DNA from: Deltaproteobacteria bacterium
Lineage (GTDB): Bacteria; Desulfobacterota; Desulfuromonadia; Geobacterales; Geobacteraceae
Direction: 5' to 3'
DNA: 64,000 bases
NCBI GenBank assembly: GCA_021848385.1
Contig: JAJZUQ010000007.1
Location: 16,389-80,388 of the forward strand
Within the stretch, counting starts at the first letter, position 1. The number at the start of each line of letters is the position of its first letter. Below are positions 3,022 through 48,985 of the stretch, one piece after another. Both the position numbers and the translations under genes were made by a program. The notes below the pieces were generated by a model. That model was not told where the DNA came from. It worked only from the letters and a program-made list of their open reading frames with translations, and ran no database searches.

Positions 3022-3097
3022 CGTGCTGCGTTCAGCGTGCTGCGAAAATTCATTTGTACGCAGCACGTAGCACGCAGTACGCAGTACGCAGCACGAG
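3022..3097. repeat. inverted heptamer arrays (CGTGCTG units facing CAGYACG units) forming a hairpin
   Basis: left cgtgctg-cgttcag-cgtgctg-cg (3022-3044); right tacgcag-cacgtag-cacgcag-tacgcag-tacgcag-cacgag (3057-3097); AT-rich loop. Confidence 0.9.
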
Positions 3098-3103
3098 ACC
3101 AAC

Positions 3104-5383
3104 ATGGACGAAAAAGCCGACAAAAAGGAAAAACTGAAGAAAGAGATCCAGGGGATGGCACTGGGGGCGGCGGGGCTGTTCGTGCTGATTGCGCTCCTTT
3201 CCTACCGGACCGACGACCTCTCCTTCAACAGTTTCTCCTCCGATGCCCGTGTTCGCAACTTCGGCGGGCGGCTCGGGGCGGAGGTGGCCGACCTGCTCCT
3301 TCAGACCACCGGCCTTGCCGGCTACCTGGTCCCCGCTGCGCTCCTCTTTCTCGCCTACCTCTTCCTCCGCTTCAAGGAGGTGAAGTGGCGCGGTTACAAA
3401 TGGTTCGCCTACGCGGGGCTCCTCGTCTCCCTTTCGTCCCTCTTCGCCTTCAACCTGCAATTTACCACGCTGTTCGGCCAGCAGGTTCAGACGGGTGGGG
3501 CCGTGGGATACCAGACTGCGTTATTTCTCAAGAGTTTCCTCGGCGCGCCGGGAGCGCTGTTGCTGCTCCTCCCCATGCTGGCCGCGTCGATCATGATCCT
3601 TTCCCGCTTCTCCTTCGTCCTGTTTGCCGACTGGTGGTTCGGGGCGCTGGGTGCCAGGTGGGCACGCTTCCGGGAACGGCGGGCGCTCAACCGTGAGTTG
3701 ATGGAAAAGGAGCCCAAGCCCGCTGAAGCCGGATCGCCGGTGATAAAGCCGCTCCCCGTGCATGTGCCGACACCTCCGCCGCTTCTGAAGAAGGAGAAGA
3801 AGAAGGACGACGAGAAGGCCAAGCCTGTCCAGGAGGCGTTCGAGTTCATAAAGAGCGACGGGGCCTATCAGACCCCTCCCCTTTCCCTTCTCGATACGCC
3901 GCCGGCGACAGAAAAGCGGGTCGACAAGGAAGCCCTGACCATGAACGCCCGGCTTCTTGAGAAGAAGCTCAAGGATTTCGGCGTGGACGGTGAGGTGGTA
4001 GAGATCTGCCCCGGGCCGGTCGTCACCATGTACGAATTTGCCCCCGGACCGGGGGTCAAGGTGAGCCGTATCGCCGGACTTGCCGACGACCTCTCCATGG
4101 CCCTGCAGGCGCTCTCCATCCGGATCATCGCCCCCATTCCCGGCAAGGGGGTCGTGGGGATCGAGCTTCCCAACCGGGACCGGGAGATCGTATTCCTGAA
4201 AGAGATATTTTCCAGCGAGGAGTTTCATCGCGGCAAGCTCAAACTCCCCATGGCTCTTGGCAAGGATGTGGCCGGCATACCGCTGGTGACCGACCTGGCC
4301 CGCATGCCCCACCTGCTGGTGGCGGGCGCCACCGGTTCCGGCAAGTCGGTATCCATCAACACCATGATCCTTTCCCTTCTCTATACCGCCACCCCCCGGG
4401 ACGTGCGGATCATCATGGTCGATCCCAAGATGCTGGAACTCTCCATCTACGAGGGGATTCCCCACCTGCTCCTCCCCGTGGTCACCAACCCGAAGAAGGC
4501 CGCCCTTGCGCTCCGGTGGGCGGTCGAGGAGATGGGGCGCCGCTACCGGCTCATGGCCGACAAGAGTGTGCGCAACATCGACTCCTACAACAAGGCGCTG
4601 GAGCGTGAGGAGAAGGAACAGGCTGACAACCGGGCGCGGGAAGCGGTGGTGGTGGAAGAGGTGGAGGACGCTGCCGACAGCGACGAGGCGGCCATCCAGG
4701 CGTTCCTCGATCGTGATGAGGCGCTGGAGCACGGCCACCTTCCCTACATCGTGGTAATCGTGGACGAACTGGCCGACCTGATGATGGTGGCGGGGCGGGA
4801 ACTGGAGGAGTCCATTGCCCGGCTGGCCCAGATGGCCCGGGCTGCCGGCATTCACCTGATCCTGGCGACCCAGCGGCCGTCGGTGGATGTCATTACCGGC
4901 CTCATCAAGGCGAACTTCCCGGCACGCATCTCCTTCCAGGTTTCCAGCAAGACCGATTCCCGCACCATCCTCGACTGCAACGGCGCGGAAGCGCTCCTCG
5001 GGGCCGGCGACATGCTCTTCCTACCCCCCGGCACCGCCAAGCTCATGCGCTCCCACGGCGCCTTCGTTTCCGACGCAGAGGTGCAGCGGGTGGTGGAGTT
5101 CCTGAAAAAGCAGGGGAAACCGGTCTATGACAAGTCTATCCTGGAGATGAAAGCGGGAGCCGAGAGTGGGGGCGCTGCCGAAGAGGAGCTTGACGAACGT
5201 TACGACGATGCGGTGGCGCTGGTGGCCGAGACCCGCCAGGCATCCATCTCCATGATCCAGCGGCGGCTCAGGATCGGGTACAACCGGGCGGCCCGCATCA
5301 TCGAGAAGATGGAGCAGGAAGGGATTGTCGCCCCGAGCGACGGGACGAGCAAGCCGCGTGAAGTGTTCATAAACAAGCTTTGA
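3104..5383 (+). CDS. ftsK: DNA translocase FtsK/SpoIIIE
   Basis: N-terminal TM domain, PHLLVAGATGSGKS Walker A, IVDELADLM Walker B, RLRIGYNRAARII gamma domain. Confidence 0.95.
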   Translation: MDEKADKKEKLKKEIQGMALGAAGLFVLIALLSYRTDDLSFNSFSSDARVRNFGGRLGAEVADLLLQTTGLAGYLVPAALLFLAYLFLRFKEVKWRGYKWFAYAGLLVSLSSLFAFNLQFTTLFGQQVQTGGAVGYQTALFLKSFLGAPGALLLLLPMLAASIMILSRFSFVLFADWWFGALGARWARFRERRALNRELMEKEPKPAEAGSPVIKPLPVHVPTPPPLLKKEKKKDDEKAKPVQEAFEFIKSDGAYQTPPLSLLDTPPATEKRVDKEALTMNARLLEKKLKDFGVDGEVVEICPGPVVTMYEFAPGPGVKVSRIAGLADDLSMALQALSIRIIAPIPGKGVVGIELPNRDREIVFLKEIFSSEEFHRGKLKLPMALGKDVAGIPLVTDLARMPHLLVAGATGSGKSVSINTMILSLLYTATPRDVRIIMVDPKMLELSIYEGIPHLLLPVVTNPKKAALALRWAVEEMGRRYRLMADKSVRNIDSYNKALEREEKEQADNRAREAVVVEEVEDAADSDEAAIQAFLDRDEALEHGHLPYIVVIVDELADLMMVAGRELEESIARLAQMARAAGIHLILATQRPSVDVITGLIKANFPARISFQVSSKTDSRTILDCNGAEALLGAGDMLFLPPGTAKLMRSHGAFVSDAEVQRVVEFLKKQGKPVYDKSILEMKAGAESGGAAEEELDERYDDAVALVAETRQASISMIQRRLRIGYNRAARIIEKMEQEGIVAPSDGTSKPREVFINKL

Positions 5384-5391
5384 AAAATCCT

Positions 5392-5833
5392 ACCACAGAG
5401 GCACAGAGACACTGAGAGAAGCATGAACAGCTATCTGCATGAAAATCTCACCCATAAAATTATTGCATCTGCAATTGAGGTGCATAAATACTTGGGGCCG
5501 GGCCTGCTGGAAACAGTCTATGAAGAGTGTTTCTGTCATGAACTGAGGTTGAATGGTATCCAGTTCGAGCGACAGAAAACTCTTCCCATCTCGTACAAAG
5601 GCTTGCAAAAGGATGACTGTTTTCGCATTGATTTGTTGGTGGAAGATGCGGTTATTATTGAATTGAAGACCGTGGAAAAACTCCTTCCGGTACATGAAGC
5701 GCAGCTTCTTACCTATATGCGATTGTCGCAGACAAAACTCGGATTGTTGGTCAACTTCAATGCAGTACTTCTAAAGGATGGCATAAAGAGGCTCATTCTT
5801 TAGATTTACTCTGTGCCTCTGTGTCTCTGTGGT
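5392..5833 (+). mobile_element. putative element: GxxExxY gene between 25-bp inverted arms of CACAGAGR octamers
   Basis: left arm accacagaggcacagagacactgag (5392-5416) matches the reverse complement of right arm ctctgtgcctctgtgtctctgtggt (5809-5833) at 22/25; interior visibly AT-richer than flanks; mobility is inferred. Confidence 0.6.
5423..5803 (+). CDS. GxxExxY protein (PD-(D/E)xK nuclease-like)
   Basis: LGPGLLETVYEECF contains G-x-x-E-x-x-Y; RIDLLVEDAVIIELK gives the D...ExK catalytic pattern; 126 aa. Confidence 0.9.
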   Translation: MNSYLHENLTHKIIASAIEVHKYLGPGLLETVYEECFCHELRLNGIQFERQKTLPISYKGLQKDDCFRIDLLVEDAVIIELKTVEKLLPVHEAQLLTYMRLSQTKLGLLVNFNAVLLKDGIKRLIL

Positions 5834-5843
5834 GAGGTTTTAT

Positions 5844-6410
5844 ATGAGCGAATGCAGAAAATACAACCTGGCTCACTTTGCCGTTACCATCATCAGCAAG
5901 GACCGCCCCGGCATCGTGGCCGATACCACCGAAGTCCTGTTCCGCCTTGGCTGCAATATCGAGGATTCCAGCTGTACCATGCTGGGGGGGGACTTTGCCA
6001 TGATCCTCATTGTCTCCCACGAAAAGCCGTTCGCCAAGGCCGGCCTGGCCGACGAGTTCAGGCTGCTCCAGGAGCGCACCGGCCTGAAAATCCACGTCCG
6101 CACACTCCAGGGGGATGAAATCTGCCCGGTGAAGGAAGAGGGGGAGCTTTGCCTCATCTCGGTCTACGGCTCGGACCAGCCGGGGATTGTCTACCGGGTA
6201 ACCCGTGCCCTGGCGGACCGTCGGGTAAACATCACCGACCTGAACACCCGGCTGATCGGCACGGTGGAGGAACCGGTCTACGTCCTGATGCTGGAGGCGA
6301 TCCTGCCGGCGGGGATGACCGTGGATGACGCCGGGCGTCTTCTGGATAATCTGAAAAAGGAGTTGAACGTGGAGATAGGGGTCCGCACCATTACCCCTGT
6401 TTCCTTCTGA
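5844..6410 (+). CDS. ACT-domain protein, glycine cleavage system regulator GcvR-like
   Basis: two ACT repeats (SKDRPGIVA; GSDQPGIVY); ATG 5844 follows GGTGAGG. Confidence 0.85.
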   Translation: MSECRKYNLAHFAVTIISKDRPGIVADTTEVLFRLGCNIEDSSCTMLGGDFAMILIVSHEKPFAKAGLADEFRLLQERTGLKIHVRTLQGDEICPVKEEGELCLISVYGSDQPGIVYRVTRALADRRVNITDLNTRLIGTVEEPVYVLMLEAILPAGMTVDDAGRLLDNLKKELNVEIGVRTITPVSF

Positions 6411-6414
6411 GACG

Positions 6415-6921
6415 ATGCCTGCCCAAAGAATACTCATCTACCCGCATCCCGTGCTGAAGAAAATGTGCCGGCCGGTGCCGGCCATCGACGCCGAAATAGG
6501 CACCCTCGTGGAGGATTTGCTGGATACCATGCGGGAAGGACCCGGCTCGGTGGGGGTTGCCGCTCCCCAGATCGGTGTCTCGCTTCGGGTTTGTGTGGTG
6601 GATGTCTCCGCCAGCCGTCTGGGGAAGGATGACAATCACGGCCAGCTGGTCATGGTAAACCCGGAGATCATCACCCGGGAAGGGGCTGCGGTGATGCGGG
6701 AAGGATGCATGAGTATCCCCGATTACACGGGGGAGGTTGAGCGGGCCACCGGGATAACGGTCCGCTTTCTCGATGGAGGAGGCCAGTCCCGTGAGATCGA
6801 GGCGAGCGGCTTCGAGGCGGTGGCGATTCAGCACGAAATGGACCACCTGGACGGTGTCCTCTTTCTCGACCGGATCGTGTCACTCAGGACGGGACTATTC
6901 CGGAGGAAGAACTACCGGTAA
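6415..6921 (+). CDS. def: peptide deformylase
   Basis: GVAAPQIG, EGCMS and QHEMDHLDG motifs. Confidence 0.95.
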   Translation: MPAQRILIYPHPVLKKMCRPVPAIDAEIGTLVEDLLDTMREGPGSVGVAAPQIGVSLRVCVVDVSASRLGKDDNHGQLVMVNPEIITREGAAVMREGCMSIPDYTGEVERATGITVRFLDGGGQSREIEASGFEAVAIQHEMDHLDGVLFLDRIVSLRTGLFRRKNYR

Positions 6922-8117
6922 CCCATCGCCGTCAGCCGCTCGAACTCGCTGCGGGAACGGCTGACGCAATCCTCCACCGCCATCCCCGCAAAGTAGTTGC
7001 CGGTCACCAGCAGGCGCTTGCCGGCTATGAGCCGGTCGATGCCGGTGGTTATCTCCCCGTGACCCACGACGGGAGAGGGAAGCCGGTTTTCCTGAGTTGC
7101 CACATGGCGCAGCGTTTCCCGCTTCACCCCCAGCACTTCGCTGATCCTGCGGAGTTTCCCCTCCTGATCCGCCGTTCCCGCCTTGAAATGGAAGCTGAAC
7201 CCCCGCTGGCTTTCATGAGGGACCGTATCGCGGGAGACGGCAGAGTAGAAGATGTCGTCGACCGCGATGATTCCGGCGAGGGGAGCGATTCGCAGCGCGT
7301 CCTTCTGCACGGCAACTCCCACCGTTTCGATGGTTTCGCACGGAATCCGGGCGAGAAGCGTGGAGAGTTCAGGCGCAAGCCCCTTAAGCAGGCGTGATGC
7401 CTCAGGTGGGGGAGTGGCAAGGGCCAGTGTGGTGGCTTCGAAGGAGGTGCCGTCAGCCGTGGTGAGCCGATACGAAGAACCGTCAAAGGCGATGTCGGTC
7501 ACATCCGTGCCGGTTATGGTCGTGATGCCCGGGTTGCGGGCTATCGTGTCGGTAATTGTCTGGAGCCCGCCCGCCAGGGTGTAGCTCTTCAGGATATCCT
7601 TACGCCGGGGACGCTTTTTGAAGAGCATTTCAGCAGGGACATCGTCGGCCCGTTGGGAGACGACGGCATTGAAAGCAGGGGCAAATACCCGGTCGAAGTT
7701 CTTCTTCCCTACAATGGGGGCATAATAGGAGGCGACGCTTGCTCCCTTCTTCTCCTGGGTGAAAATATGCCAGACCGAAGCGAAGAGTTCCAGGAAGTTG
7801 AGCTGGGAGGGGATGGACTTGATCCCGGAATCGACCAGCAGGCGGAAGGAAACCTTTTCCCGTGCCAGGATCCGGTCAAGGAGAGCGCATTGCTCCATGA
7901 TGTCGATCAGGTTGCCGTAAGAGTTATAGCAGGTGTGGGCCCCCAGTTCGAGCCAGAAACCGGTTGCATCGCCGGTGAAGGAATGGGAGTTGAAGCAGCC
8001 GCCGATCCGTTCGCTCCGTTCGATGACCAGGGCCTTGAGACCGGTCCTCTGGCAGTAATGGGCAAGGCTGAGGCCGCTGATTCCTGCACCGATGACAATG
8101 AGATCGTATCTCTCCAT
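6912..8117 (-). CDS. FAD-dependent oxidoreductase, protoporphyrinogen oxidase-like
   Basis: IGAGISGLS dinucleotide-binding motif, ERIGG, LELGAHT, C-terminal GNYFAG; AAGGAGG RBS before ATG 8117. Confidence 0.75.
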   Translation of the reverse strand: MERYDLIVIGAGISGLSLAHYCQRTGLKALVIERSERIGGCFNSHSFTGDATGFWLELGAHTCYNSYGNLIDIMEQCALLDRILAREKVSFRLLVDSGIKSIPSQLNFLELFASVWHIFTQEKKGASVASYYAPIVGKKNFDRVFAPAFNAVVSQRADDVPAEMLFKKRPRRKDILKSYTLAGGLQTITDTIARNPGITTITGTDVTDIAFDGSSYRLTTADGTSFEATTLALATPPPEASRLLKGLAPELSTLLARIPCETIETVGVAVQKDALRIAPLAGIIAVDDIFYSAVSRDTVPHESQRGFSFHFKAGTADQEGKLRRISEVLGVKRETLRHVATQENRLPSPVVGHGEITTGIDRLIAGKRLLVTGNYFAGMAVEDCVSRSRSEFERLTAMGYR

Positions 8118-8174
8118 GGTGTTCCTCCTTCTGCCTGTGTCGAGCCCGGTCCGTTGTGGCGGACCGGTAGCTGC

Positions 8175-8259
8175 ATAGTAGGCGGCTAGAGATTGCTTGT
8201 CAAGTCGTACCATGCCCGGCTGGGCGATGGTTGACAAGGCGGGGAACTACGATTACATT
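8175..8259. promoter_or_regulatory. divergent sigma70-type promoters
   Basis: minus strand TTGACA (8203-8198)-17 nt-TACTAT (8180-8175); plus strand TTGACA (8231-8236)-17 nt-TACATT (8254-8259). Confidence 0.65.
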
Positions 8260-8291
8260 CAAGACGTGGACTTAACGAAAGGAAGCGAACC

Positions 8292-9188: not shown

Positions 9189-9194
9189 AGCCCC

Positions 9195-11273: not shown

Positions 11274-14753
<3,480 letters not shown>

Positions 14754-14774: not shown

Positions 14775-15266
14775 TTACCTGGCGAGGTGTTTCTGCCGGC
14801 GCTCTTCGATGAACATGTCGACGGCGAGGAGAAAGACGCCGACGCAGATGGCCGAGTCGGCCACGTTGAATGCCGGCCAATGGTGCCCGTACCAGTGGGC
14901 GTCGAGAAAATCAATCACCTCGCCGAGCCGGACCCGGTCGATGAGGTTGCCGACCGCTCCGGCGAAGATGAGGGAGAGGGCGAAGGCGGTGAAGTTCTGA
15001 TCGGGTCGGAGCTTGCGGAAAAAGGTGACAATTACCGCCACGGCAACGATCGAGACGAGGATAAAGAAGGGGATGCGGTAGTTGAAGTTGGCCAGGAAGC
15101 TGAAAGCAGCCCCCTTGTTTCGCATATAGGTGATGTTGAAGAAGTTCTCCACGACAGTGATGGATGTGTGAAGATCCATGGTCCGGTCGATGTAGAGCTT
15201 GGTCACCTGGTCGATGCCGATGGTCAGGGTGGAGACCACAAGGAGGATGAGGTATTTCAGTTTCAT
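14775..15266 (-). CDS. lspA: lipoprotein signal peptidase
   Basis: DQVTK, NKGAAFS, GAVGNLIDR, VIDFLD, FNVADSAI; start placed at MKLKY because the upstream extension runs through repeat DNA. Confidence 0.95.
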   Translation of the reverse strand: MKLKYLILLVVSTLTIGIDQVTKLYIDRTMDLHTSITVVENFFNITYMRNKGAAFSFLANFNYRIPFFILVSIVAVAVIVTFFRKLRPDQNFTAFALSLIFAGAVGNLIDRVRLGEVIDFLDAHWYGHHWPAFNVADSAICVGVFLLAVDMFIEERRQKHLAR

Positions 15267-15300
15267 GAATTCGCTTTCCAATACAATTCTAAAAGCTATA

Positions 15301-15470
15301 ACCACGGAGGACGCGGAGGAAAGGCAAAGTCGGTTATCTTTGAACCGCAAAGACGCGAAGATCGCAAATAACATCTAAAGTCGTAGGGTTTAAGCCAAAA
15401 AGTCAAAATAGTGATGATCTGTTTTTTTGCGCTTCCTTTGCGCTCTTAGCGCCTTTGCGGTTCAAAAGAT
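15301..15470. repeat. gene-less inverted-repeat element with 9-nt periodic arms plus an extra solo arm
   Basis: 15336-15368 atctttgaaccgcaaagacgcgaagatcgcaaa pairs with 15437-15470 (reverse complement atcttttgaaccgcaaaggcgctaagagcgcaaa); solo accacggaggacgcggagga at 15301-15320. Confidence 0.85.
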
Positions 15471-15481: not shown

Positions 15482-18256
15482 TTACTTCACGGCAGCAAGA
15501 CACTTCGGACAGATGGTCGGATGTTCTCCATCCGTGCCGAGCTCTTCGCTGTAACACCAGCAGCGCTCGCATTTCTCGCCGGGAGCTGCGGTGACCCGCA
15601 CCTTCATGCCGGCGACAGCTTCGGCAGTGTAGCATTCCCCATCGAGTGATCCCGCCAGGTTTACGCTGGAGACGATGAAAATGGCCGGCAACTCCCGGGC
15701 GTACTCCTTCAGGAAACCGAGCAGTTCGGGCTCGGCGGCGATGGTCACGGCCGCGTCCAGGGGGTGCCCGATGGTCTTGGTCACCCGTGCCTGTTCCAGC
15801 GCCTTGGAGACCTCGGCGCGGACCTTCATGATCCGCTCCCACCGCTCGACCAGCTGCTCGTCTTTCCATTCCGGCTGGAGAGCAGGGAATTCGGCCAGAT
15901 GGACGCTCTCTTCCCGCCCGTCCGGCATGTATCCCCAGACCTCGTCGGCCGTGAAAGAGAGCACCGGGGCCATGAGCCGCACCAGGGTATCGAGGATGCG
16001 GTACATGACGGTCTGGGCAGAGCGCCGTTCCACCGAATCCTTCCTGCTGGTGTAGAGTCGGTCCTTGAGGATATCCAGGTAGAAGGCACTCATCTCAACG
16101 GTGCAGAAGCCGTTCATTGCATGGTAGAGGACATGGAACTCGTACTCGCTGTAGCAGGTGAGCACCTTCTCCTTGAGAAGCTCCAGCTGGTGGAGGGCCC
16201 AGCGGTCCAGTTCCGGCATCTCCCCGTACGCGACGGCGTCCTTCGCCGGGTCGAAGTCGTGGATATTCCCCAGGATGTAGCGGCAGGTGTTCCGGATGCG
16301 GCGGTATGCCTCGGAGAGGCGGGTGAGGATTTCCTGGGAGATGCGGATGTCGTCCCGGTAGTCCTGGGCGGCGACCCAGAGGCGAAGGATCTCGCCGCCG
16401 AATTTCTTGATCACCTCTTCGGGGGCGACCACGTTACCGACCGACTTGCTCATTTTGCGTCCTGAGCCGTCCACTACGAAGCCGTGGGTCAGGACGTTCC
16501 GGTAGGGAGCAACACCCCGGGTCCCGACGCTCTCCAGGAGCGAGGAGTGGAACCACCCCCGGTGCTGGTCGCTCCCCTCCAGATAGAGGTCGGCGGGAGA
16601 TGCGAGCTTGGCGTTCGGCTCCAGGACAGCCGCATGGGAAACCCCGGAGTCGAACCAGACGTCCAGGATGTCCATCTCTTTCTGGAACTCCGATGCCCCG
16701 CATTTCGGGCATGTCGTCCCGGCCGGCATCAGCCGGGCGGCATCCCAGTCGAACCAGATGTCGGCGCTGTGCTGCTTGAACTGCTCGGCGACGAAGTCCA
16801 TGATGGTCCCGTCGGCCAGGTACTCGCCGCAGGCGGTGCAGGAGAAGGCGGTGATCGGTACGCCCCAGGAGCGTTGACGGGAAATGCACCAGTCGGGGCG
16901 GTTCTCGATCATGCCGTAGATCCGCTCCTTTCCCCATCGGGGGATCCACTGGACGGAGTTGACTGCCGCCAGGGCGTTCTTTCTGAGGCCGTTCGCCTCC
17001 ATGGAGATGAACCACTGTTCGGTGGCGCGGAAGATGATCGGCTTCTTGCAGCGCCAGCAGTGGGGGTAGGAGTGGGTGATGTTTGCCTGCCCCACGAGAG
17101 CCCCCACTTCGGTCAGTTTTTCGATGACGGCCGGGTTGGCGGCCAGGACGGACTGGCCGCCGAAGAACTCAAGGTTGCCGATATACTTGCCGTGGTTGTC
17201 CACCGGGTTGTAGATCTCCAACCCCTCCTTCATCCCCAGCTCGTAGTCTTCCTGACCGTGCCCGGGCGCGGTGTGGACGCAGCCGGTCCCTGCCTCCAGG
17301 GTTACGTGTTCGCCGAGCAGCACAATGGAGTCCCGGTCATAGAAGGGGTGCTTGCACCGTTTGCGCTCCAGAAGTGGGGCGGCGAAGGTTGCCAGCACCT
17401 TCCCTTCCAGCTTGTTGGCCGCCAGGAACGCGTCCTTCAACCCTTCGGCCACGATCAGCACTTCCCCGTTCACCTCCAGGGCGGCGTAGGTGAAGTCGGG
17501 ATGGATGGCGATCGCCAGGTTGGCGGGGATGGTCCAGGGGGTAGTGGTCCAGATGACAAGTGAGACCCGTTTTCCTGCCAGAGCCGGGACCGCTGCGGAG
17601 ATATCGTCCTGCAGGCGGAACTTGACGTAGATGGAGGGGGAGGTATGGTCGGCATACTCCACCTCGGCCTCGGCCAGGGCGGTGACGCAGGAGGAACACC
17701 AGTGGACCGGTTTCTTGCCGCGGTAGAGGCCGCCGTTATGGGCGAATTTGGCCAGTTCTGCGGCGGTCAGCCCCTCGTACTCGTAATTCATGGTGAGATA
17801 CGGGTTCTCCCAGTCCCCCAGGACGCCGAGGCGCTTGAACTCGTCCCGCTGGATGGCGATGAACTTTTCGGCGTAGGTGCGGCACTCCCGGCGCATGGCC
17901 AGCTTGGACATCTCATGCTTCTTCGACCCCAGGTTCTTCTCCACCTGCAACTCGATGGGGAGGCCGTGGCAGTCCCATCCCGGGACGTAGGGGGCGCTGA
18001 GCCCCTCCATCCGCTTACTCTTCAGGATAACATCCTTGAGGATCTTGTTGAGGGCATGGCCAATGTGGATATGGCCGTTGGCATAGGGGGGGCCGTCGTG
18101 GAGGATGTAGAGCGGCCGCTCCTTCCCCTTCTCTTCGATCTTTCCGTAGAGGCCGGTATCGTCCCACTTTTTCAGGATTTCCGGTTCCCGCTGGGCCAGG
18201 TTGGCTTTCATGGGGAACTCGGTGACCGGCAGGTTGAGCGTCTCTTTATAGTCCAT
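15482..18256 (-). CDS. ileS: isoleucine--tRNA ligase
   Basis: DGPPYANGHIHIGH (HIGH), KMSKS, WTTTPWT, C-terminal CERC...C zinc motif. Confidence 0.98.
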   Translation of the reverse strand: MDYKETLNLPVTEFPMKANLAQREPEILKKWDDTGLYGKIEEKGKERPLYILHDGPPYANGHIHIGHALNKILKDVILKSKRMEGLSAPYVPGWDCHGLPIELQVEKNLGSKKHEMSKLAMRRECRTYAEKFIAIQRDEFKRLGVLGDWENPYLTMNYEYEGLTAAELAKFAHNGGLYRGKKPVHWCSSCVTALAEAEVEYADHTSPSIYVKFRLQDDISAAVPALAGKRVSLVIWTTTPWTIPANLAIAIHPDFTYAALEVNGEVLIVAEGLKDAFLAANKLEGKVLATFAAPLLERKRCKHPFYDRDSIVLLGEHVTLEAGTGCVHTAPGHGQEDYELGMKEGLEIYNPVDNHGKYIGNLEFFGGQSVLAANPAVIEKLTEVGALVGQANITHSYPHCWRCKKPIIFRATEQWFISMEANGLRKNALAAVNSVQWIPRWGKERIYGMIENRPDWCISRQRSWGVPITAFSCTACGEYLADGTIMDFVAEQFKQHSADIWFDWDAARLMPAGTTCPKCGASEFQKEMDILDVWFDSGVSHAAVLEPNAKLASPADLYLEGSDQHRGWFHSSLLESVGTRGVAPYRNVLTHGFVVDGSGRKMSKSVGNVVAPEEVIKKFGGEILRLWVAAQDYRDDIRISQEILTRLSEAYRRIRNTCRYILGNIHDFDPAKDAVAYGEMPELDRWALHQLELLKEKVLTCYSEYEFHVLYHAMNGFCTVEMSAFYLDILKDRLYTSRKDSVERRSAQTVMYRILDTLVRLMAPVLSFTADEVWGYMPDGREESVHLAEFPALQPEWKDEQLVERWERIMKVRAEVSKALEQARVTKTIGHPLDAAVTIAAEPELLGFLKEYARELPAIFIVSSVNLAGSLDGECYTAEAVAGMKVRVTAAPGEKCERCWCYSEELGTDGEHPTICPKCLAAVK

Positions 18257-20238: not shown

Positions 20239-20949
20239 GTGATGGGTGCTATCTATCGTTACTTCGTCTCGCTCAACCTTGGGCTCTGGCTCATGGCCGG
20301 TGTGCTGCTGTTCATGGCGTTCGGCTCTTTTGTCAGTGGCGGGGAAACCGGAAGCTCCATCAACGACCTGCCAATCTTCCTCTGGTTGCGGGAGGCGCCG
20401 CTGGTCGCTTCCTGGTGGCTCTGGACGACTATCGGGCTGCTGGCCCTGCTGGCCCTCAATACGGTTCTCTGCAGCATTGAGTCCCTCCGGAAAAAGTGGG
20501 AACGTGGGAATTTCCTGGTCCGTATCGCCCCACAGGTCATGCATCTTGGGTTCCTGCTGATCATGGTCGCGCATCTGTTCAGCGCCAGGGGGAGCTTCAA
20601 GCAGGTTATGGAGGTGGGGGAGGGAAGCACCATCGGTTTCCCCGATGGCGGTGTGGTGCTTGTGGAGAGGCTTCACGCTGCCATGGGGCCCATGGGGATG
20701 CCGTCCGGCTACAGCGCCGAGGTCCGCACCCTTGCGGGAGGTACGACATCCGGGACCATGAGCCCCAACCACCCCTTCTTCTACGGGGGGTTCGGACTCT
20801 ACCTGAAGGAAGTGGGGTTCATGCCGGCGCCGGTGGCACTGGTGGAGATCCACCGGGAGCCGGGGGCTGGCTGGGCGTTGGCGGGGGCACTGCTGTTTAC
20901 GGTGGGGAATGTGGTGCTGCTGGCGGTCCGGCGGGGACGTTCGGCCTGA
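20239..20949 (+). CDS. ResB-like (cytochrome c biogenesis) membrane protein, short form
   Basis: N-terminal TMs, WW...LLALNTVLCS, APQVMHLGFLLIMVAH conserved His, C-terminal EPG+TM. Confidence 0.65.
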   Translation: MMGAIYRYFVSLNLGLWLMAGVLLFMAFGSFVSGGETGSSINDLPIFLWLREAPLVASWWLWTTIGLLALLALNTVLCSIESLRKKWERGNFLVRIAPQVMHLGFLLIMVAHLFSARGSFKQVMEVGEGSTIGFPDGGVVLVERLHAAMGPMGMPSGYSAEVRTLAGGTTSGTMSPNHPFFYGGFGLYLKEVGFMPAPVALVEIHREPGAGWALAGALLFTVGNVVLLAVRRGRSA

Positions 20950-21113
20950 ATCGGCGAGGGATGAGCGTTCCGTTTCGCTCAAAGTCCCCTCGAACCTCCG
21001 CTGTACGGCTCATTTCGCGCCGGCCGTTTGGCCGGCTCTGCTCAATTTCGCCTACATCGGCTGGTTCTCGGGCACATTCGCTTTACGGAGCACTCACCCC
21101 TCACCGATTCAGG
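20945..21113. repeat. 169-bp MITE/REP-like long hairpin with 29-bp terminal inverted repeats
   Basis: cctgaatcggcgagggatgagcgttccgt (20945-20973) vs reverse complement of 21085-21113 cctgaatcggtgaggggtgagtgctccgt, 25/29; central gccggcc-gttt-ggccggc. Confidence 0.85.
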
Positions 21114-41665: not shown

Positions 41666-42081
41666 CTCCCCCCGGCCGGCTCCGTAACCATCCCGAGCCG
41701 CTCGATGCCGGCTCCCTTGATCTCCGCCATGGTCTTGACCACGTCCCCGTAGGGGACATCCTGGTCAGCCTTGAGGAATACCTCTTTCTTAGTCCGGTTG
41801 GCAAACATGGAGGTCAGACGGCCGCGCAGTTCGGTTCCGGCGACCGGCTCCTTGTTGATGAACAGCCGGTTCCCCTTGTCGATGGAGACGATGACGGTCT
41901 CTTCCTGGGCCGGCAGGGCCTTGGCGTCCGCTTTCGGCAGGTTGACCTGAACACCCTGTTGCATCATGGGGGCGGTGACCATGAAGATTACCAGAAGGAC
42001 GAGCATGACGTCTACCAGGGGGGTAACGTTGATCTGCGACATGGTCCCCCGGTCGCTGTTGTTATGACTTCCCATTCCCAT
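41662..42081 (-). CDS. tolR: TolR
   Basis: INVTPLVDVMLVLLVIFMVTAP, KADQDVPYG. Confidence 0.93.
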   Translation of the reverse strand: MGMGSHNNSDRGTMSQINVTPLVDVMLVLLVIFMVTAPMMQQGVQVNLPKADAKALPAQEETVIVSIDKGNRLFINKEPVAGTELRGRLTSMFANRTKKEVFLKADQDVPYGDVVKTMAEIKGAGIERLGMVTEPAGGR

Positions 42082-42090
42082 GCTTCCCCC

Positions 42091-42765: not shown

Positions 42766-42917
42766 GGCATGTACCTCCGCTGTTTGTTAGGAGAAAACTC
42801 CCCGAAAATATTACGTACCCCGGGGGAAGTCAATACGATTTTTATTACTGCCGGGGCAGGTGTCCGTGCCCGCCCGGATGGTGGGCGCCTACAGGATGCC
42901 ATCCGGCGGAAAGCCGG

Positions 42918-43697: not shown

Positions 43698-43817
43698 GGC
43701 GGTACCTCCTTCCGGCTTTAATCATAAGAGTGCCGCAAGTTTACCGGCAAGTGAGCTGCATTACAACAAGATATTACCAGTTGGACATGGCGCTGGGGAT
43801 GTACTACTATCCTGGAC

Positions 43818-44963
43818 ATGGACTGTTCTCTCTACATCCATTTTCCCTTCTGCGTCCGGAAATGCCTCTACTGTGACTTCAACTCCCTGGCCGGCTCTAC
43901 AATCATGCCTGAGGAGTACGTTATGGCGCTGGTGCGGGAGATGGAGCTGCGTGCGGCAACCCTGGCGGCGCCGGTAACGGCTCCCACCCTCTATATCGGG
44001 GGTGGCACTCCTTCGCTCATGGCTCCGGAGCTGGTTAAACGGGTGATAGATGGGGCCAGGAGGTGGTACGGGCTTTTGCCGGTGGCGGAAGTGACCCTGG
44101 AGGCAAATCCCGGCACCGTCGACCTGAAAAAACTGGCCGGTTACCGGGCGGCGGGGGTGAACCGCCTCTCGATGGGGGTGCAGTCCCTGGACGATGCCAT
44201 GCTGGCTCGTCTCGGCCGTGTCCATTCGGCTCGCCAGGCAATGGAGGCGGTTGCCGCTGCCAGAGGCGCAGGGTTTGCCAATCTCGGGATCGACCTGATC
44301 CACGGGCTCCCCGGCCAGACGACCGCCATGTGGCGGGACGACCTGATGCGGGCCATTGATTTCGCACCCGAGCATATTTCTGCCTATGGCCTCTCCGTGG
44401 AGGAGGGGACTCCGTTCCACGAACTGGCACGTGCGGGGCAACTCGACCTGCCGGACGAAGAGATCGGGTTGGAGATGCTGGAGATGACGCCGGAGGTCCT
44501 CGGACAGGCCGGCTACGACCACTACGAGATTTCCAATTTTGCCCGTTCCGGATTTCGTTCCCGCCACAACCAGGTCTACTGGCGAAGGGGGAGCTACCTC
44601 GGGTTCGGGGCGGCGGCCCACTCCTTCCTGCGGGAAGAGGGGTGGGGGCGGCGTTGGCACAACCCGGACCGGCCGGCCGCCTACATGCCATCCCTCGCCG
44701 ATGGTCTCCCGCCGGAGGAGGAACAGCTTGTCCTTGATCGCCGTGATGCTATGGCGGAGTCCATGTTCCTTGGCCTGCGGCTTCTGGAAGGTGTTGAGCT
44801 GTCCCGTTTCCGGGAGGAATTCGGGGTGACGGTGGACGCGACCTATGGAGCTGAAGTGGCCAGCCTCAAGGTGTCCGGCCTGCTGGAACTGGCCGGTGAC
44901 CGGTTGCGGCTTACCCGGACAGGCCTGTGTCTGGCCAACCAGGTGTTTCAGGCCTTCATTTAG
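43818..44963 (+). CDS. hemW: radical SAM heme chaperone HemW (HemN-like)
   Basis: LYIHFPFCVRKCLYCDF, GGGTPS, EANPG, YEISNF; precedes hrcA. Confidence 0.9.
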   Translation: MDCSLYIHFPFCVRKCLYCDFNSLAGSTIMPEEYVMALVREMELRAATLAAPVTAPTLYIGGGTPSLMAPELVKRVIDGARRWYGLLPVAEVTLEANPGTVDLKKLAGYRAAGVNRLSMGVQSLDDAMLARLGRVHSARQAMEAVAAARGAGFANLGIDLIHGLPGQTTAMWRDDLMRAIDFAPEHISAYGLSVEEGTPFHELARAGQLDLPDEEIGLEMLEMTPEVLGQAGYDHYEISNFARSGFRSRHNQVYWRRGSYLGFGAAAHSFLREEGWGRRWHNPDRPAAYMPSLADGLPPEEEQLVLDRRDAMAESMFLGLRLLEGVELSRFREEFGVTVDATYGAEVASLKVSGLLELAGDRLRLTRTGLCLANQVFQAFI

Positions 44964-45004
44964 CAGGGAAGGGACGGTCGGGGCTGTTGTTCGGGGAAAT
45001 CCCC

Positions 45005-45033
45005 TTGACAAAACGGGAGTTTGTTATTAGATT
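45005..45033 (+). promoter_or_regulatory. sigma70 promoter of the hrcA-grpE-dnaK operon
   Basis: TTGACA (45005-45010)-17 nt-TAGATT (45028-45033). Confidence 0.75.
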
Positions 45034-45041
45034 GGGACGTA

Positions 45042-45068
45042 TTAGCACTCGGAAATGATGAGTGCTAA
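45042..45068. promoter_or_regulatory. CIRCE element (HrcA operator)
   Basis: perfect TTAGCACTC-N9-GAGTGCTAA. Confidence 0.97.
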
Positions 45069-45087
45069 TGTTTTTTTGAGGGTTACC

Positions 45088-46119
45088 ATGCACGACAACC
45101 TGACAGAGCGGAGCAAACAGATCCTCGAAGCGATCATTGAGGATTATATCGTTACGGCTGAACCGGTCGGGAGCCGGATGGTTACCCGCAGGCACGGTCT
45201 CAATCTGTCGCCGGCCACGGTGCGCAATGTCATGTCAGACCTGGAGGAAATGGGGTTTCTTGCCTCTCCCCACACGTCGGCGGGGCGGGTTCCGACCGAC
45301 AAGGCCTACCGCCTCTATGTCGACTCCCTCCTCGGGGTGCGGCGGGTCGCCCGGGAGGAACGGGAAGAGATCCGCAGACACTGCAGCCTGACGGGTAAAG
45401 ATATCGGCGAAGTGCTCAAGGAAACGAGCCGGATGCTCTCCTCCGTGTCCCATTACATGGGGATCGTGGCCGCGCCGCGCTTTGCCGCCAATGTGCTCCG
45501 GCATCTGGAGTTCGTCAAGCTCGGAGGGCAGCGGATTCTGGTCATCCTGGTTTCCCAGAGCGGCTCCGTGCAGAACAAGATCATCGAAACGACCGATGAT
45601 TTCTCCAACGAAGACCTGGTCCGGATGTCCAACTACCTTAACGAGCTTCTTGCCGGACTGACCATTGCCCAGGTACGCAACCGCCTCCTTGAAGAGATGG
45701 AAAACGCCAAGACGAAGTACGATTCGCTTCTGTCCAAGGCGCTCCAACTCTCCCAGCAGAGTCTGCCGGATAAGGATTCGGAGGTTTTTATCGAGGGGCG
45801 GTCCAACATCCTGGATCTTCCCGAGTTTGCCGACGCCGGCAGGATGAAGGAGATTTTCCGGGCCTTCGAGGAGAAGGGGCAGCTTGTCGGTCTCCTCGAT
45901 CAGTGCCTCGGTGCACAGGGGATCAATATCTTCATCGGCGCCGAGTCCCGACTGAGCCAGATGGCTGGACTGAGCGTCATTACCTCGACCTATATGACCA
46001 GCCGCAACACCCTCGGGGTGCTCGGCGTTATCGGCCCGACACGCATGGGATACGCCAAGGTGATCCCGATTGTCGACTATACGGCGAAGATGGTCAGCCG
46101 GCTCCTGGAAATAGAGTAG
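45088..46119 (+). CDS. hrcA: heat-inducible transcription repressor HrcA
   Basis: EPVGSR, SPATVRNVMSDLE, PHTSAGRVPT, GVIGPTRM; start placed after CIRCE. Confidence 0.96.
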   Translation: MHDNLTERSKQILEAIIEDYIVTAEPVGSRMVTRRHGLNLSPATVRNVMSDLEEMGFLASPHTSAGRVPTDKAYRLYVDSLLGVRRVAREEREEIRRHCSLTGKDIGEVLKETSRMLSSVSHYMGIVAAPRFAANVLRHLEFVKLGGQRILVILVSQSGSVQNKIIETTDDFSNEDLVRMSNYLNELLAGLTIAQVRNRLLEEMENAKTKYDSLLSKALQLSQQSLPDKDSEVFIEGRSNILDLPEFADAGRMKEIFRAFEEKGQLVGLLDQCLGAQGINIFIGAESRLSQMAGLSVITSTYMTSRNTLGVLGVIGPTRMGYAKVIPIVDYTAKMVSRLLEIE

Positions 46120-46166
46120 CCGTCCACTGACTTCGCGCCTTGAAGTGATCCACGGGAGATACTGAG

Positions 46167-46748
46167 ATGGACAAGAAAAAACATACGGAACAACACAGTG
46201 CTATGCCGGCCGGAGACGTGCCGCAACCGGAAACGGAACCGGCTGCCGTTCCGCCTGCGGATTCGACGGCTCCAAGTGGCGAGCGACTGCAGGAACTGGA
46301 AGCGGCCCTGGCGGCGAAGGAGGCCGAAGCGGCGGCAAACTGGGACAAGTTCGTCCGGGAGCGGGCCGACCTGGAGAACTACCGCCGACGGGTCCAGAAG
46401 GAGAAAGAGGAGCTTCTCAAGTACGGTAACGAGTCGCTTCTTCTCGAAATCCTGCCGGTCCTCGACAACATGGAGCGGGCACTGGCCCACTCCGACGAGG
46501 AGAGCCAGAACGCGGTGATCGAAGGGGTGCGGATGACCCACACCATGCTCCTTGGCGCCCTGAAAAAGTTCGGCGTTGCCCCCATCGAAACCGGCCGCGG
46601 TACCGTCTTTAATCCGGATTTCCACCAGGCCATGTGCCAGGTTGAATCAGACGACCTTCCTGCCAATGTGGTGGTTGAGGAACTCCAGCGGGGGTACCTG
46701 CTGAACGAGCGGCTCCTCAGGCCGGCCATGGTATCGGTGACGAAATAG
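46167..46748 (+). CDS. grpE: nucleotide exchange factor GrpE
   Basis: [32 protein letters not shown]...LLRPAMV. Confidence 0.96.
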
Positions 46749-46756
46749 GGGCTGAG

Positions 46757-46844
46757 TAACCCCTCCCAGCCTCCCCTTAATCTCAAGGGGAGGAGTTTTT
46801 CTTCCTCCTCCCCCTCTTAAGCTAAGAGGGGGCAGGGGGAGTTA
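46757..46844. repeat. REP-like double hairpin between grpE and dnaK
   Basis: cctcccctt-aatctc-aaggggagg and ccccctctta-agc-taagaggggg, enclosed by taacccct... / ...gggagtta. Confidence 0.8.
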
Positions 46845-46941
46845 TGAGCCTGAGAAATGAACTTTTTTCATGTCCCCCCTTGTTTTTCCGGCGGGGGATG
46901 CCTAGCTTGAACGTAGATATTTCACAAGGAGGAGCACCCAT

Positions 46942-48852
46942 ATGAGCAAAGTTATCGGAATCGACCTGGGAACCACCAACTCCTGCGTTGCCGTCATGGA
47001 GGGGGGGGAACCGGTTGTCATAGCCAACGCGGAGGGGAGCCGCACCACTCCGTCCATGGTCGCCTTCACCGACAGCGGTGAGCGGCCGGTGGGGCAGCAG
47101 GCCAAACGCCAGGCGGTCACCAACCCGGAGAACACCCTTTTTGCCATCAAACGGCTCATCGGCCGCAAGTTCAACACAGAACAGGTGAAGAAGGACATCG
47201 GCATTTCACCTTTCAAGATCGTGAAGGCGGACAACGACGACGCCTGGGTGGAAGTCCGGGGGCAGAAATATTCCCCCCCGGAGATCTCGGCCATGGTCCT
47301 GCAGAAGATGAAGAAGACCGCCGAGGACTACCTGGGCGAGACGGTGACCGATGCGGTCATCACTGTCCCGGCCTACTTCGACGACTCCCAGCGCCAGGCG
47401 ACCAAGGACGCCGGCAAGATCGCCGGTCTGAACGTCCTCCGTATCATCAATGAGCCGACTGCGGCTGCCCTTGCTTACGGCCTCGACAAGAAGAAGGACG
47501 AAAAGATCGCGGTTTTCGACCTGGGTGGGGGGACCTTCGATATTTCCATCCTGGAGCTTGGTGAAGGGGTGTTCGAGGTGAAGTCCACCAACGGCGACAC
47601 CTTCCTCGGCGGTGAGGATTTCGACCAGAAGGTGATCGACTGGATTGCCGACGAGTTCAAGAAGGAGCAGGGGATTGACCTGCGGAGCGACAAGATGGCA
47701 CTGCAGCGCCTCAAAGAGGCCGCGGAGAAGGCCAAGTGCGAGCTCTCCACCTCCATGGAGACTGACATCAACCTCCCCTTCATCACCGCCGACGCCACCG
47801 GCCCCAAGCACCTGACCCTGAAACTCAGCCGGGCCAAGCTTGAGGCGCTCTGTGCCGAGCTCATCGCCAACCTGGAAGGCCCGTGCCGGACTGCCCTCAA
47901 GGATGCCGGTCTTTCGGCCAGTGACGTGGACGAGGTGATCCTGGTGGGGGGCATGACCCGCATGCCGATCGTGCAGAAAAAGGTGCAGGATATTTTCGGC
48001 AAGGTCCCCAATCGGGGTGTCAATCCGGACGAAGTGGTGGCCATCGGCGCCGCCATTCAGGGTGGCGTCCTCAGGGGTGATGTTAAAGACGTGCTGCTCC
48101 TCGACGTCACGCCGCTTTCCCTCGGTATCGAGACTCTTGGAAGCGTCATGACCAAGCTGATCGAGAAGAACACCACCATCCCCTGCCGGAAGTCCCAGAC
48201 CTTTTCCACTGCCGCCGACAACCAGCCGGCCGTGACCATTCATGTCCTCCAGGGTGAGCGGGAGATGGCGGGGGACAACAAGACCCTCGGCAATTTCGAG
48301 CTGACCGGTATTCCCGCCGCACCCCGCGGCGTTCCCCAGATCGAAGTGACCTTCGACATCGACGCCAACGGCATTGTTCACGTCTCCGCCAAGGACCTGG
48401 GGACCGGCAAGGAGCAGTCGATCCGGATTACCGCTTCCTCCGGCCTCTCCAAGGAGGAGATTGACAAGATGGTGCAGGATGCCGAGGTCCACGCCTCCGA
48501 GGACAAGAAGAAGCGGGAGCTGATTGAGGCCCGCAACCAGGCCGACTCCCTTGCCTATCAGACCGAGAAGTCCCTCAAGGAATACGGTGACAAGATCGAT
48601 GCTGCCGAGAAGCAGAAGATCGAAGAGGGTCTGGCTACGCTGAAGAAGGCCCTGGAGGGGAACGACCCGGATGCCATCAAGAAGGCGAGCGACGACCTGA
48701 TGCAGGCGTCCCACAAGCTTGCCGAGGCGGTCTACGCCAAGGCTCAGCCCGGCGCCGGCGAAGCAGCGGGAGAACCTTCCGCCGAGGCGGGTGCCAAGGG
48801 TGAGAAGGTCGTGGATGCCGACTTCGAGGAAGTGAAGGACGACAAGAAATAA
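46942..48852 (+). CDS. dnaK: chaperone DnaK
   Basis: [41 protein letters not shown]. Confidence 0.98.
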
Positions 48853-48855
48853 AGC

Positions 48856-48985
48856 AGGCTCCAGGCACGAGGCTTTAGGCACGAGGAAAATCGGGCAAAG
48901 GCGAGGGGTGGAAGATTGTATCTTTTACCTTTCGCCTTTTGCCGTATGATAAGGTTTTCCCCGAGCCCTTAGTCTAGAGCCTTCG
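48856..48985. repeat. nested inverted heptamer arrays between dnaK and dnaJ
   Basis: aggctcc-aggcacg-aggcttt-aggcacg-agg (48856-48886); inner stem ggcaaaggcgaggggt / acctttcgccttttgcc (48894-48943); degenerate complementary array gagccct-tagtcta-gagcctt downstream. Confidence 0.7.

Follow-up and report, generated by a model that had tools for sequence, protein, structure and literature searches.

Inverted arms of short tandem units in mRNA spacers of a Geobacteraceae bacterium and the gene families that such arms enclose

Four hairpins with arms of short periodic units lie between co-directional housekeeping genes in a 64,000-nucleotide stretch of the Geobacteraceae genome GCA_021848385.1 (Deltaproteobacteria bacterium; contig JAJZUQ010000007.1, positions 16,389 to 80,388 of the forward strand), called the window here. 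An earlier reading, made from the sequence only, had suggested that they could form a system of small nuclease-encoding cassettes and dependent empty hairpins, with the unit length marking subfamilies. We find that the gene link of periodic hairpin arms is real and general across phyla and that the unit length follows the family of the enclosed gene. Units of 8-9 nt accompany GxxExxY genes, and units of 7 nt accompany four-helix-bundle genes. The four hairpins of the window are probably palindromic insertion cassettes, similar to the intervening sequences (IVS) of rRNA, and their derivatives without an open reading frame (ORF), placed in mRNA spacers and falling into two classes.

The junctions, with genes named by NCBIfam, and the elements in them are as follows, with the strand where one applies.

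J1 junction: rnj (RNase J, 1304-3016) and ftsK (3104-5383), co-directional
J1, 3022-3095: ORF-less heptamer hairpin between rnj and ftsK
J1 5' arm, 3022-3044: CGTGCTG CGTTCAG CGTGCTG CG
J1 3' arm, 3056-3095: (CGCAGYA)x5
J2 junction: ftsK (3104-5383) and an ACT-domain gene (5844-6410), co-directional
J2 whole element, 5384-5841, plus strand: period-8 arms and the enclosed gene
J2 5' arm, 5384-5416, plus strand: octamer units AAAATCCTA-CCACAGAG-G-CACAGAG-A-CACTGAG
J2 cargo, 5423-5803, plus strand: 126-aa GxxExxY protein, TIGR04256 / PF13366, predicted PD-(D/E)XK
J2 3' arm, 5809-5841, plus strand: CTCTGTG-C-CTCTGTG-T-CTCTGTGG-TGAGGTTTT
J3 junction: ileS (15482-18256, minus strand) and lspA (14775-15267, minus strand), co-directional
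Solo 5'-type array, 15301-15329: ACCACGGAGG ACGCGGAGG AAAGGCAAAG, no 3' partner; matches the octamer-arm pattern
J3, 15335-15470: ORF-less octamer-family hairpin between ileS and lspA
J3 arms, 15339-15368 and 15437-15466: 30 nt, 90% complementary, with a loop of 68 nt
J4 junction: dnaK (46942-48852) and dnaJ (49004-50116), co-directional
J4, 48857-48988: ORF-less compound hairpin between dnaK and dnaJ
J4 outer 5' arm: GCTCCAG GCACGAG GCTTTAG GCACGAG, period 7; the outer 3' arm is degenerate
J4 inner stem, 48893-48940

The stability of the stems was scored against dinucleotide shuffles, and the periodicity of the arms was measured by autocorrelation and compared with shuffles. Long inverted repeats of significant stability, with periodic arms, are present at all four junctions, at the positions given by the sequence-only reading, which was thus confirmed. 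By length, J2, J3 and J1 rank in the top five of the window's inverted repeats. The inverted repeat of J1 (3022-3044 / 3073-3095) is 23 nt long and 87% complementary, and its RNA fold has -39.6 kcal/mol (z -4.9). The J2 arms pair over 33 nt with 82% complementarity (5384-5416 / 5809-5841), and the whole cassette folds with a z of -7.6 against the shuffles. For J3 and J4 the folds have -52.1 kcal/mol (z -7.4) and -66.7 kcal/mol (z -5.2), respectively. Period 7 was detected in both arms of J1 and period 8 in both arms of J2 (p<=0.002 each), and Tandem Repeats Finder reported period 7 at 3058-3095 and period 8 at 5394-5417 and 5809-5831. In J4, period 7 has a p of 0.001 in the 5' arm and of 0.07 in the degenerate 3' arm. 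The periods of 7 and 8 named earlier therefore stand for J1, J4 and J2; the 9 named for J3 does not, the spacing being a mixed 8/9. Only J2 encloses an ORF among the four hairpins, as had been noticed, and this is the GxxExxY gene at 5423-5803. A search of the whole window with Rfam 15 gave no match at the gathering threshold, and no rRNA lies in the window. Intrinsic terminators (GC-rich stem and T run) were considered and rejected, with no terminator-like site at the four main stems and counts at or below those of shuffled sequence. A promoter reading was also rejected, with no promoter consensus coinciding with the hairpin stems.

The 5' arm of J2 starts immediately 3' of the ftsK stop codon. 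The cassette has tandem CRCNRAG cores with a 1-2-nt spacer and the purine-rich arm on the 5' side, and thus fits the octamer-arm pattern described below; its outer termini, TACCACAGAG...CTCTGTGGTG, fit (A)CCRC...GYGG(T). The AG-rich leader of the cargo is inside the 5' arm, and the GGTGAGG inside the 3' arm is, judged by its sequence, likely the Shine-Dalgarno motif of the ACT-domain gene (ATG at 5844). The cargo matched TIGR04256 (E 4e-45, 153 bits, cut-off 35) and PF13366 (147 bits, cut-off 22) and no other family. Its residues E30, D70, E80 and K82 are invariant in 24 aligned sequences. The AlphaFold2 model (pLDDT 91.7) had Cas4 SSO0001 as its top Foldseek match (4ic1, E 8.5e-4), followed by lambda exonuclease and the nuclease domains of AdnAB, and tRNA-splicing endonucleases were faintly alike. 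With the E...D...ExK residues and the Cas4-like fold of the model, the cargo is a predicted PD-(D/E)XK nuclease. A sequence search of the PDB with the GxxExxY cargo matched no solved structure. A defence-system reading of the cargo was dropped, PADLOC giving only a weak likeness to Cas4.

J2 was compared with related loci; L-numbered loci are stretches from other genomes, metagenomes or viral contigs. At the same ftsK/ACT junction, J2 is present in L284, where the cargo is 97% identical, and L285 and L286 hold it with cargo identities of 75-76% and flanks at about 75% nucleotide identity; the units of the arms have hardly changed in these three cassettes. The cargo, with a dN/dS of 0.11 against L284, is under purifying selection; for the FtsK C-terminus the value is 0.06. 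In another relative, the contigs join ftsK (5370) straight to the ACT gene (5863). Community metagenomes contained many contigs with J2-type arms across short unrelated loops, and these are other ORF-less copies in the community.

The GxxExxY family has at least 7,989 clusters at E<=1e-10. We examined 80 loci from many phyla, with relatives 53-64% identical and 83 genes in all. For each gene, the 150 nt upstream were aligned to the reverse complement of the 150 nt downstream, and arms were taken as significant at z>=5 against shuffles. Significant flanking inverted arms were found for 69 of the 83 genes, and the armed genes span Planctomycetota, Acidobacteriota, Verrucomicrobiota, Chlamydiota, Bacteroidota, Chloroflexota, Proteobacteria and other phyla. 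The arms are nearly always made of a tandem core C-R-C-N-R-A-G (CACAGAG, CACGGAG, CACGAAG, CGCAAAG, CGCAGAG and others) with 1-2 nt between the cores and usually about 3-4 units per arm. In every case the purine-rich array is found 5' of the gene, and the outer ends read (A)CCAC...GTGG(T). In most cassettes the right arm follows 0-10 nt past the cargo stop codon, and the left arm either adjoins the start or extends over it. As a control we used an FtsK-seeded genome scan of 80 loci, which includes one close relative (L084), the other 79 serving for control use. The density of CRCNRAG arrays was 47 per 100 kb in loci with GxxExxY genes versus 2 per 100 kb in the 80 control (FtsK) loci.

Species-representative genomes were scanned with the octamer-arm pattern CACRGAGNCACRGAGNCACRGAG, which gave at least 120 matches. 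Among the matches listed were Acidobacteriota, Planctomycetota, Cyanobacteria, Spirochaetes, Actinomycetota and a Methanotrichaceae archaeon. Here 76 of 89 arm pairs have loops below 150 nt and about ten have gene-sized loops, so among the matches listed the ORF-less hairpins are several-fold more numerous than full cassettes. All recognisable genes enclosed by these pairs are GxxExxY genes (L196, L232, L279, L281). ORF-less and full forms are often adjacent (L004, L006, L009, L018, L025, L029, L034). The orientation of ORF-less hairpins relative to their neighbours, scored with stop-to-stop ORFs, was discarded, as spurious long ORFs span 51 of the 76 in high-GC genomes.

Several side observations concern the octamer arms. 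Many GxxExxY database proteins of 135-150 aa carry an N-terminal extension that is the translated 5' arm, for example HRDTEAQR in L281 (database proteins P0008-P0120; L281 2857-3305, L232 1441-1956), which is probably a systematic miscall of the start codon. In L041, two GxxExxY cassettes stand in tandem (2964-3395 and 3618-4049, 654 nt apart) with the identical arms CACGAAGGACACGAAGAGCACGAAG, and this arm sequence recurs in the Planctomycetota loci L051, L063 and L069. L006 has a GxxExxY gene between two identical complete hairpins (86-217, 656-787); there and in L212, L255 and L270, some genes, among them housekeeping genes, stand between a pair of complete ORF-less hairpins and not in a loop. 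One arm can pair near, as a short hairpin, or far, with the gene enclosed (L025, L029, L034). Directly upstream of a GxxExxY cassette in L082, a 154-aa ORF (717-1181) lies between CGCAGAG-type octamer arms; it has no Pfam match and a PD...E-A-K-like motif (PDIEG...IIVEAKGE), and may be a second octamer-arm cargo family. In IMG/VR, the octamer arm pattern was found in at least 120 predicted viral or proviral stretches (L486-L565), in which phage carriage and the host flank of provirus calls are indistinguishable, and the GxxExxY scan of viral contigs gave one locus (L606).

J3 matches the octamer-arm pattern. Its 5' arm reads GAACCGCAAAG-A-CGCGAAG-AT-CGCAAA, also written ACCGCAAAG-A-CGCGAAG-AT-CGCAAA, and its outer termini, GAACCGCAAAG...CTTTGCGGTTC, fit (A)CCRC...GYGG(T). 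From CGCAAAG to CGCGAAG the core spacing is 8 nt, and from CGCGAAG to CGCAAAT it is 9 nt (p 0.01-0.06). Since this variable 1-2-nt spacer is the same as in the J2 family, J3 does not represent a 9-nt design of its own. Arms of this type also flank GxxExxY genes in L027, L045, L031 and L018, which places J3 in the J2 family as a member without an ORF. In a soil-metagenome contig (run X5) J3 is absent, with 23 unrelated bases between lspA and ileS. The solo array beside J3 reads ACCACGGAGGACGCGGAGG at 15301-15320, and its unit number varies between strains: one variant of run X5 has an extra ACGGAGGGGT after 15312.

A generic search for hairpin-enclosed ORFs gave L033, where a four-helix-bundle gene (PF05635, E 6e-34) lies between (AGCGATG)n and (CATCGCT)n. 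Homologues of this gene were aligned, and the sample consisted of 80 metagenome loci with 78 genes. Significant flanking arms were found at 56 of the 78, with the units AGTGCTG, AGTGATG, AGCAATG, AAGTCCA, AAGTTTC, AGGACTG and others. The arms have a median of about 31-33 nt, or about 4.5 heptamers, with about 4-5 units per arm. Among those with clear periodicity, 52 of 53 have period 7 and one has period 8. When the GxxExxY arms were scored alike, 22 had period 8, 13 had period 9, one had period 10 and none had period 7, the rest being blurred by the variable spacer. Period 7 versus 8-9 thus separates the two cargo families (Fisher's exact p = 9e-24), and on this ground the unit length marks the cargo family. 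The sequence-only reading had suggested that each unit length could mark a subfamily; 8-9 nt does go with GxxExxY and 7 nt with the four-helix bundle, and the 9-nt units belong to the same family as the 8-nt ones. That arm families enclose genes elsewhere was correctly foreseen, as were two of the cargo types it listed (GxxExxY and four-helix bundle); the third, a DUF559-type gene, was not encountered in the loci examined.

Two further observations were made with 7-nt arms. In L090 (6187-6807), a Desulfosarcinaceae metagenome-assembled genome, a Methyltransf_24 ORF (PF13578, E 3e-24) lies directly after ftsK inside (GGAAGTC)n inverted arms; it is a larger, ordinary-looking gene at a junction type like that of J2. 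The four-helix-bundle arms of L413 and L472 contain ACTGGGG, the complement of the unit of the cyanobacterial short tandemly repeated repetitive sequence STRR1, reportedly CCCCAGT, which Mazel and colleagues are said to have described in 1990. This is a hint that STRR arrays belong here.

The assignment of J1 and J4 is less direct. The J1 unit CGTGCTG has the same polarity as AGTGCTG, the second commonest four-helix-bundle unit class, and differs by one mismatch, a weak likeness given that 19% of random heptamers come as close as this to at least one of the four-helix-bundle unit classes. The 5' arm of J4 reads AGGCxxx, weakly like the four-helix-bundle units AGGACTG or AGGTATG. A genome scan with CGCAGYA x3, in which 119 loci were examined among the matches listed, gave mostly Chloroflexota, Gemmatimonadota and Actinomycetota; some of these matches may be intragenic (e.g. 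in Streptomyces), and often they are plain tandem arrays. Among the matches listed, 45 of 144 arrays are paired with an inverted array no more than 2 kb away, with loops below 150 nt in 28 of the 45; the polarity is that of J1 in 36 of the 45, and no gene-sized loop was found among these 36. Since the unit likeness is weak and the CGCAGYA scan gave no cargo, we file J1 and J4 as ORF-less heptamer-design hairpins whose membership in the cargo family is unproven and would rest on the design, period-7 inverted arms. A 303-nt contig of metatranscriptome run X35 (depth 20), which aligns to 3056-3093, has a CGCAGYA-type hairpin with other flanks and another loop; at least one other J1-like hairpin copy in the community is therefore transcribed.

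Among relatives, the presence of the empty hairpins varies. J1 is present in three states: the hairpin of the window, a different palindrome of about 125 nt (GACGGC...GCCGTC) that replaces it in L284, where the flanking genes are about 88-91% identical, and a 23-nt rnj-ftsK spacer with no hairpin in L084 (about 77-80% identical). J4 is kept in strains about 98% identical to the window, and the dnaK-dnaJ spacer is different in a relative of about 95% identity (metatranscriptome X21). J3, as described above, is absent in the X5 contig. The sequence-only reading had named two findings as evidence against itself, fixed orthologous empty elements and arms that never enclose a gene. Neither was obtained, because arms enclose genes elsewhere and the empty elements are not fixed. 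Its interpretation was right in its core, a cargo-linked and non-fixed hairpin system with unit length as family marker; the autonomous/non-autonomous mechanism is unproven.

Another explanation is independent slippage, in which units would grow locally and be corrected on a palindromic template, with no common origin and an accidental association with genes. It draws on the strain-variable unit number, seen with the extra ACGGAGGGGT in X5 and with the heptamers of Coxiella (PMC4990558), on the many CGCAGYA arrays that are plain tandem repeats without an inverted partner, and on heptanucleotide repeats being generally the commonest long simple-repeat class in bacteria (cited in PMC4679880). 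However, the outer termini and core motif are common to many phyla, the link of period to cargo is almost one to one (p 9e-24), the arms lie within 0-10 nt of the ORFs, and the unit class correlates with the cargo clade. We consider slippage unlikely as a general account; for J1 and J4 alone it is a live option.

The closest known system is the IVS of rRNA. In the 23S IVS of Coxiella, an S23p (four-helix-bundle) ORF lies in the loop of a 28-bp terminal-inverted-repeat stem, heptameric repeats of strain-variable number lie upstream of the ORF, and RNase III cuts in the stem and so removes the AG-rich Shine-Dalgarno region (Warrier et al., PMC4990558). The IVS of Coxiella, Leptospira, Xanthomonas and Brucella share with the elements described here a PF05635 ORF in a long-stem loop, heptamers beside the ORF and ORF-less versions, and IVS are regarded as selfish and possibly once mobile (PMC4990558). 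The window elements also have the terminal-inverted-repeat stem with an optional small ORF. Unlike IVS, which are inserts in helix 25 or 45 of 23S rRNA, all four lie between protein-coding genes, in mRNA spacers, and the only cargo of the window is a predicted PD-(D/E)XK protein and not a four-helix bundle. As far as found, arms made wholly of tandem units with a cargo-family-specific period also set them apart from IVS, and RNase III cutting would apply here by analogy.

The repeats themselves were already catalogued in Geobacter, as the sequence-only reading had stated. Aklujkar et al. 2009 (PMC2700814) describe opposite-strand pairs of sites in G. metallireducens: class 1, GTTGCTYN x4, with 24 pairs; class 2, TCTCCGTS[Y] x3, with 21 pairs; and class 3, MTYCTGA x5, with 8 pairs. 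IHF/HU or unidentified global regulators were proposed as binders, and the class 2 pairs in the covered part of the table are all between consecutive genes, e.g. pdhA/pdhB. These sites have the same design as the present hairpins in their opposite-strand pairing at variable distance, in their 3-5 tandem units of 7-9 nt and in their place between consecutive genes. The octamer core CTCCGTG is part of the class 2 unit, and the class 3 unit is similar to those of four-helix-bundle arms, for instance AGTTCTGAGTCCTG in L407. In contrast to the elements described here, the pairs listed there are all empty, and the paper draws no link to cargo or to IVS. Table S4 of this source gives the IS110-family ISGme8 and the IS481-family ISGme9 at a fixed distance from class 1 sites, which suggests that tandem-unit hairpins are also targets for other mobile elements.

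These published sites raise the possibility that the hairpins are regulatory sites of the host, with units that would bind a global regulator or IHF/HU or would act as mRNA stabilisers or attenuators, and with small genes merely tolerated nearby. The pairing of sites between consecutive genes and the suggested IHF/HU binding in PMC2700814 would agree with this, as would the precise position of the hairpins between stop and start codons and the downstream Shine-Dalgarno motif that is covered by the 3' arm of J2. Yet one and the same arm family, with a single cargo family attached to it, is spread over very distant phyla and reaches an archaeon, and the period follows the cargo family and not the host. 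Close relatives differ by gain, loss and replacement at housekeeping junctions, and several unit classes occur in one genome, as J2, J3 and the solo array of the window do. We regard a regulatory origin as very improbable.

Other systems share single features. Like the repetitive extragenic palindromes (REP) and the REPIN-RAYT system, the present elements comprise many extragenic palindromes, few of which flank a putative mobiliser gene, and they are mostly vertical with slow turnover. RAYT is an HUH/Y1 transposase, and REPs are not built of tandem 7-9-nt units. Unlike in REPIN-RAYT, the cargo here is PF13366 or a four-helix bundle with no HUH/Y1 RAYT gene, and each cargo copy has its own arms. 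The Correia elements of Neisseria are intergenic inverted repeats that are co-transcribed and processed by RNase III; their presence is strain-variable, and they have defined terminal inverted repeats, a TA target duplication and no dedicated internal gene. In contrast, no target duplication was found here, and the full cassettes have a dedicated cargo gene. The STRR of cyanobacteria and the TAACTGA repeats of Beggiatoaceae are likewise tandem intergenic heptamers with a patchy distribution across phyla, but they are direct arrays, mostly upstream of starts, not inverted and without a cargo link (PMC4679880).

We infer a mechanism for hairpin cassettes of two classes. The full form of the octamer class encloses a GxxExxY PD-(D/E)XK gene, with J2 as a full copy and J3, with the solo array beside it, as an ORF-less one; that of the heptamer class encloses a PF05635 (S23p/Avd-like) gene, and J1 and J4 would be ORF-less hairpins of this design. 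The cassettes would be mobile and selfish, now or formerly, spreading rarely and later being lost or replaced. They would settle at transcribed sites where they do little harm, either just after stop codons in operon spacers or in rRNA helices that tolerate expansion. The stem would form in the transcript and be cut by RNase III, by analogy with the rRNA IVS, and the flanking mRNAs would be released. We propose that the insertion is tolerated because RNase III would remove the insert from the host RNA, and that translation of the cargo is kept low because Shine-Dalgarno-like GGAG/GAGG motifs lie in the cut stem. ORF-less copies may be derivatives that depend on full copies, or decaying remnants.

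In the same mechanism, the tandem units may be iterated binding sites for an oligomer of the cargo protein, since every cargo family keeps its period, with a unit sequence that drifts along with the clade of the cargo. Mean identity within and between unit classes is 0.64 versus 0.55 for the four-helix-bundle proteins and 0.61 versus 0.57 for the GxxExxY proteins (permutation p 0.0005 for both). The S23p homologue of Xanthomonas is a homopentamer (cited in PMC4990558), and the match with about 4.5 heptamers per arm may be read as suggestive only.

Several observations weigh against the cassette reading. Host phylogeny confounds the co-variation of cargo and unit. Metatranscriptome contigs do not span the window hairpins. 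Stem mismatches on the cargo sense strand comprised 63 G-U and 49 A-C pairs (p 0.22), and since this is no significant excess of G-U, selection on an RNA stem is not demonstrated and a DNA palindrome fits equally. No target-site duplication, transposition intermediate or empty/filled pair with clean boundaries was seen; the filled and empty sites compared (J1 with L084, J3 with the X5 contig) gave neither flanks that could be aligned nor a duplication, with the regions beyond the arms inspected by eye. J2 is stably orthologous down to about 75% nucleotide identity, so mobility, if any, is rare and domestication may have occurred. The exact J1 and J4 units (CGTGCTG, GCACGAG) were found around no cargo gene, the CGCAGYA arms in the 119 loci were cargo-free, and 99 of the 144 CGCAGYA arrays among the matches listed have no inverted partner.

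Because an RNA stem and a DNA palindrome agree equally well with the G-U/A-C test, the main rival is a DNA-level mechanism similar to REPIN-RAYT. Here a cruciform or single-stranded DNA hairpin would be cut by the PD-(D/E)XK protein as a transposase or homing nuclease, the ORF-less copies would be passengers, and RNase III would be irrelevant. The cargo is a predicted nuclease with intact catalytic residues and a modelled fold like those of Cas4 and lambda exonuclease, enzymes that act on DNA. The conserved termini ACCAC...GTGGT resemble terminal inverted repeats, and the lack of a G-U excess, the surplus of ORF-less over full copies and the turnover of sites among relatives would also be expected from such a mechanism. 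Against it, the heptamer class carries a non-enzymatic four-helix-bundle protein, and the nuclease is therefore not the common engine. Also, target-site duplications were not observed, the many GxxExxY copies of a genome are each flanked by separate arms, as opposed to one RAYT gene and many REPINs, and processing as RNA has been demonstrated for the related rRNA IVS (PMC4990558). We judge the DNA-level mechanism rather unlikely, although better placed than slippage or host regulation, and favour the IVS-like cassettes.

A bolder form of the cassette reading is held only tentatively. It takes GxxExxY/PF13366 and PF05635 as the protein halves of one unrecognised class of mobile hairpins. Their oligomers would read their own arrays of 8-9 nt or 7 nt on both arms and drive copying or homing into transcribed spacers and rRNA helices, where excision by RNase III would neutralise the insert. 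The ORF-less hairpins, including the 'regulator sites' of Geobacter, the ORF-less IVS and possibly STRR, would then be non-autonomous progeny.

A fifth palindrome of the window (20945-21113) has 29-nt arms that are 86% complementary, a 111-nt loop and no consistent short period. Its neighbours are an ORF with its end at 20949 and a minus-strand ppiA-like gene. A relation to the J1 replacement in L284 (2498-2643) is possible, and a CAAAGTCC-like motif is present in both palindromes.

PF13366 and PF05635, each with thousands of members in bacteria and archaea, are two of the largest prokaryotic protein families that have no assigned function (PMC3424549, PMC11270868), and PF05635 includes Avd, the accessory protein of diversity-generating retroelements. 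The function of PF13366 is listed as unknown, with multiple transfers (PMC3424549), and the four-helix-bundle protein of IVS was functionally uncharacterised as late as 2024 (PMC11270868). A literature search of incomplete coverage found no paper with the octamer arm sequences or a link between GxxExxY and repeats; it appears that the design is on record in Geobacter, that the gene link is not, and that the cargo-period rule is undescribed. The origin and mobility of rRNA IVS have been open questions since about 1990. The rule can be checked in sequences, since the cargo family predicts the period of the stem units and the unit sequence tracks the cargo clade, and it could make both families testable. 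It reinterprets the published 'global regulator sites' of Geobacter, explains the spurious N-terminal extensions of annotated GxxExxY proteins and lets annotators flag hairpin inserts inside operons.

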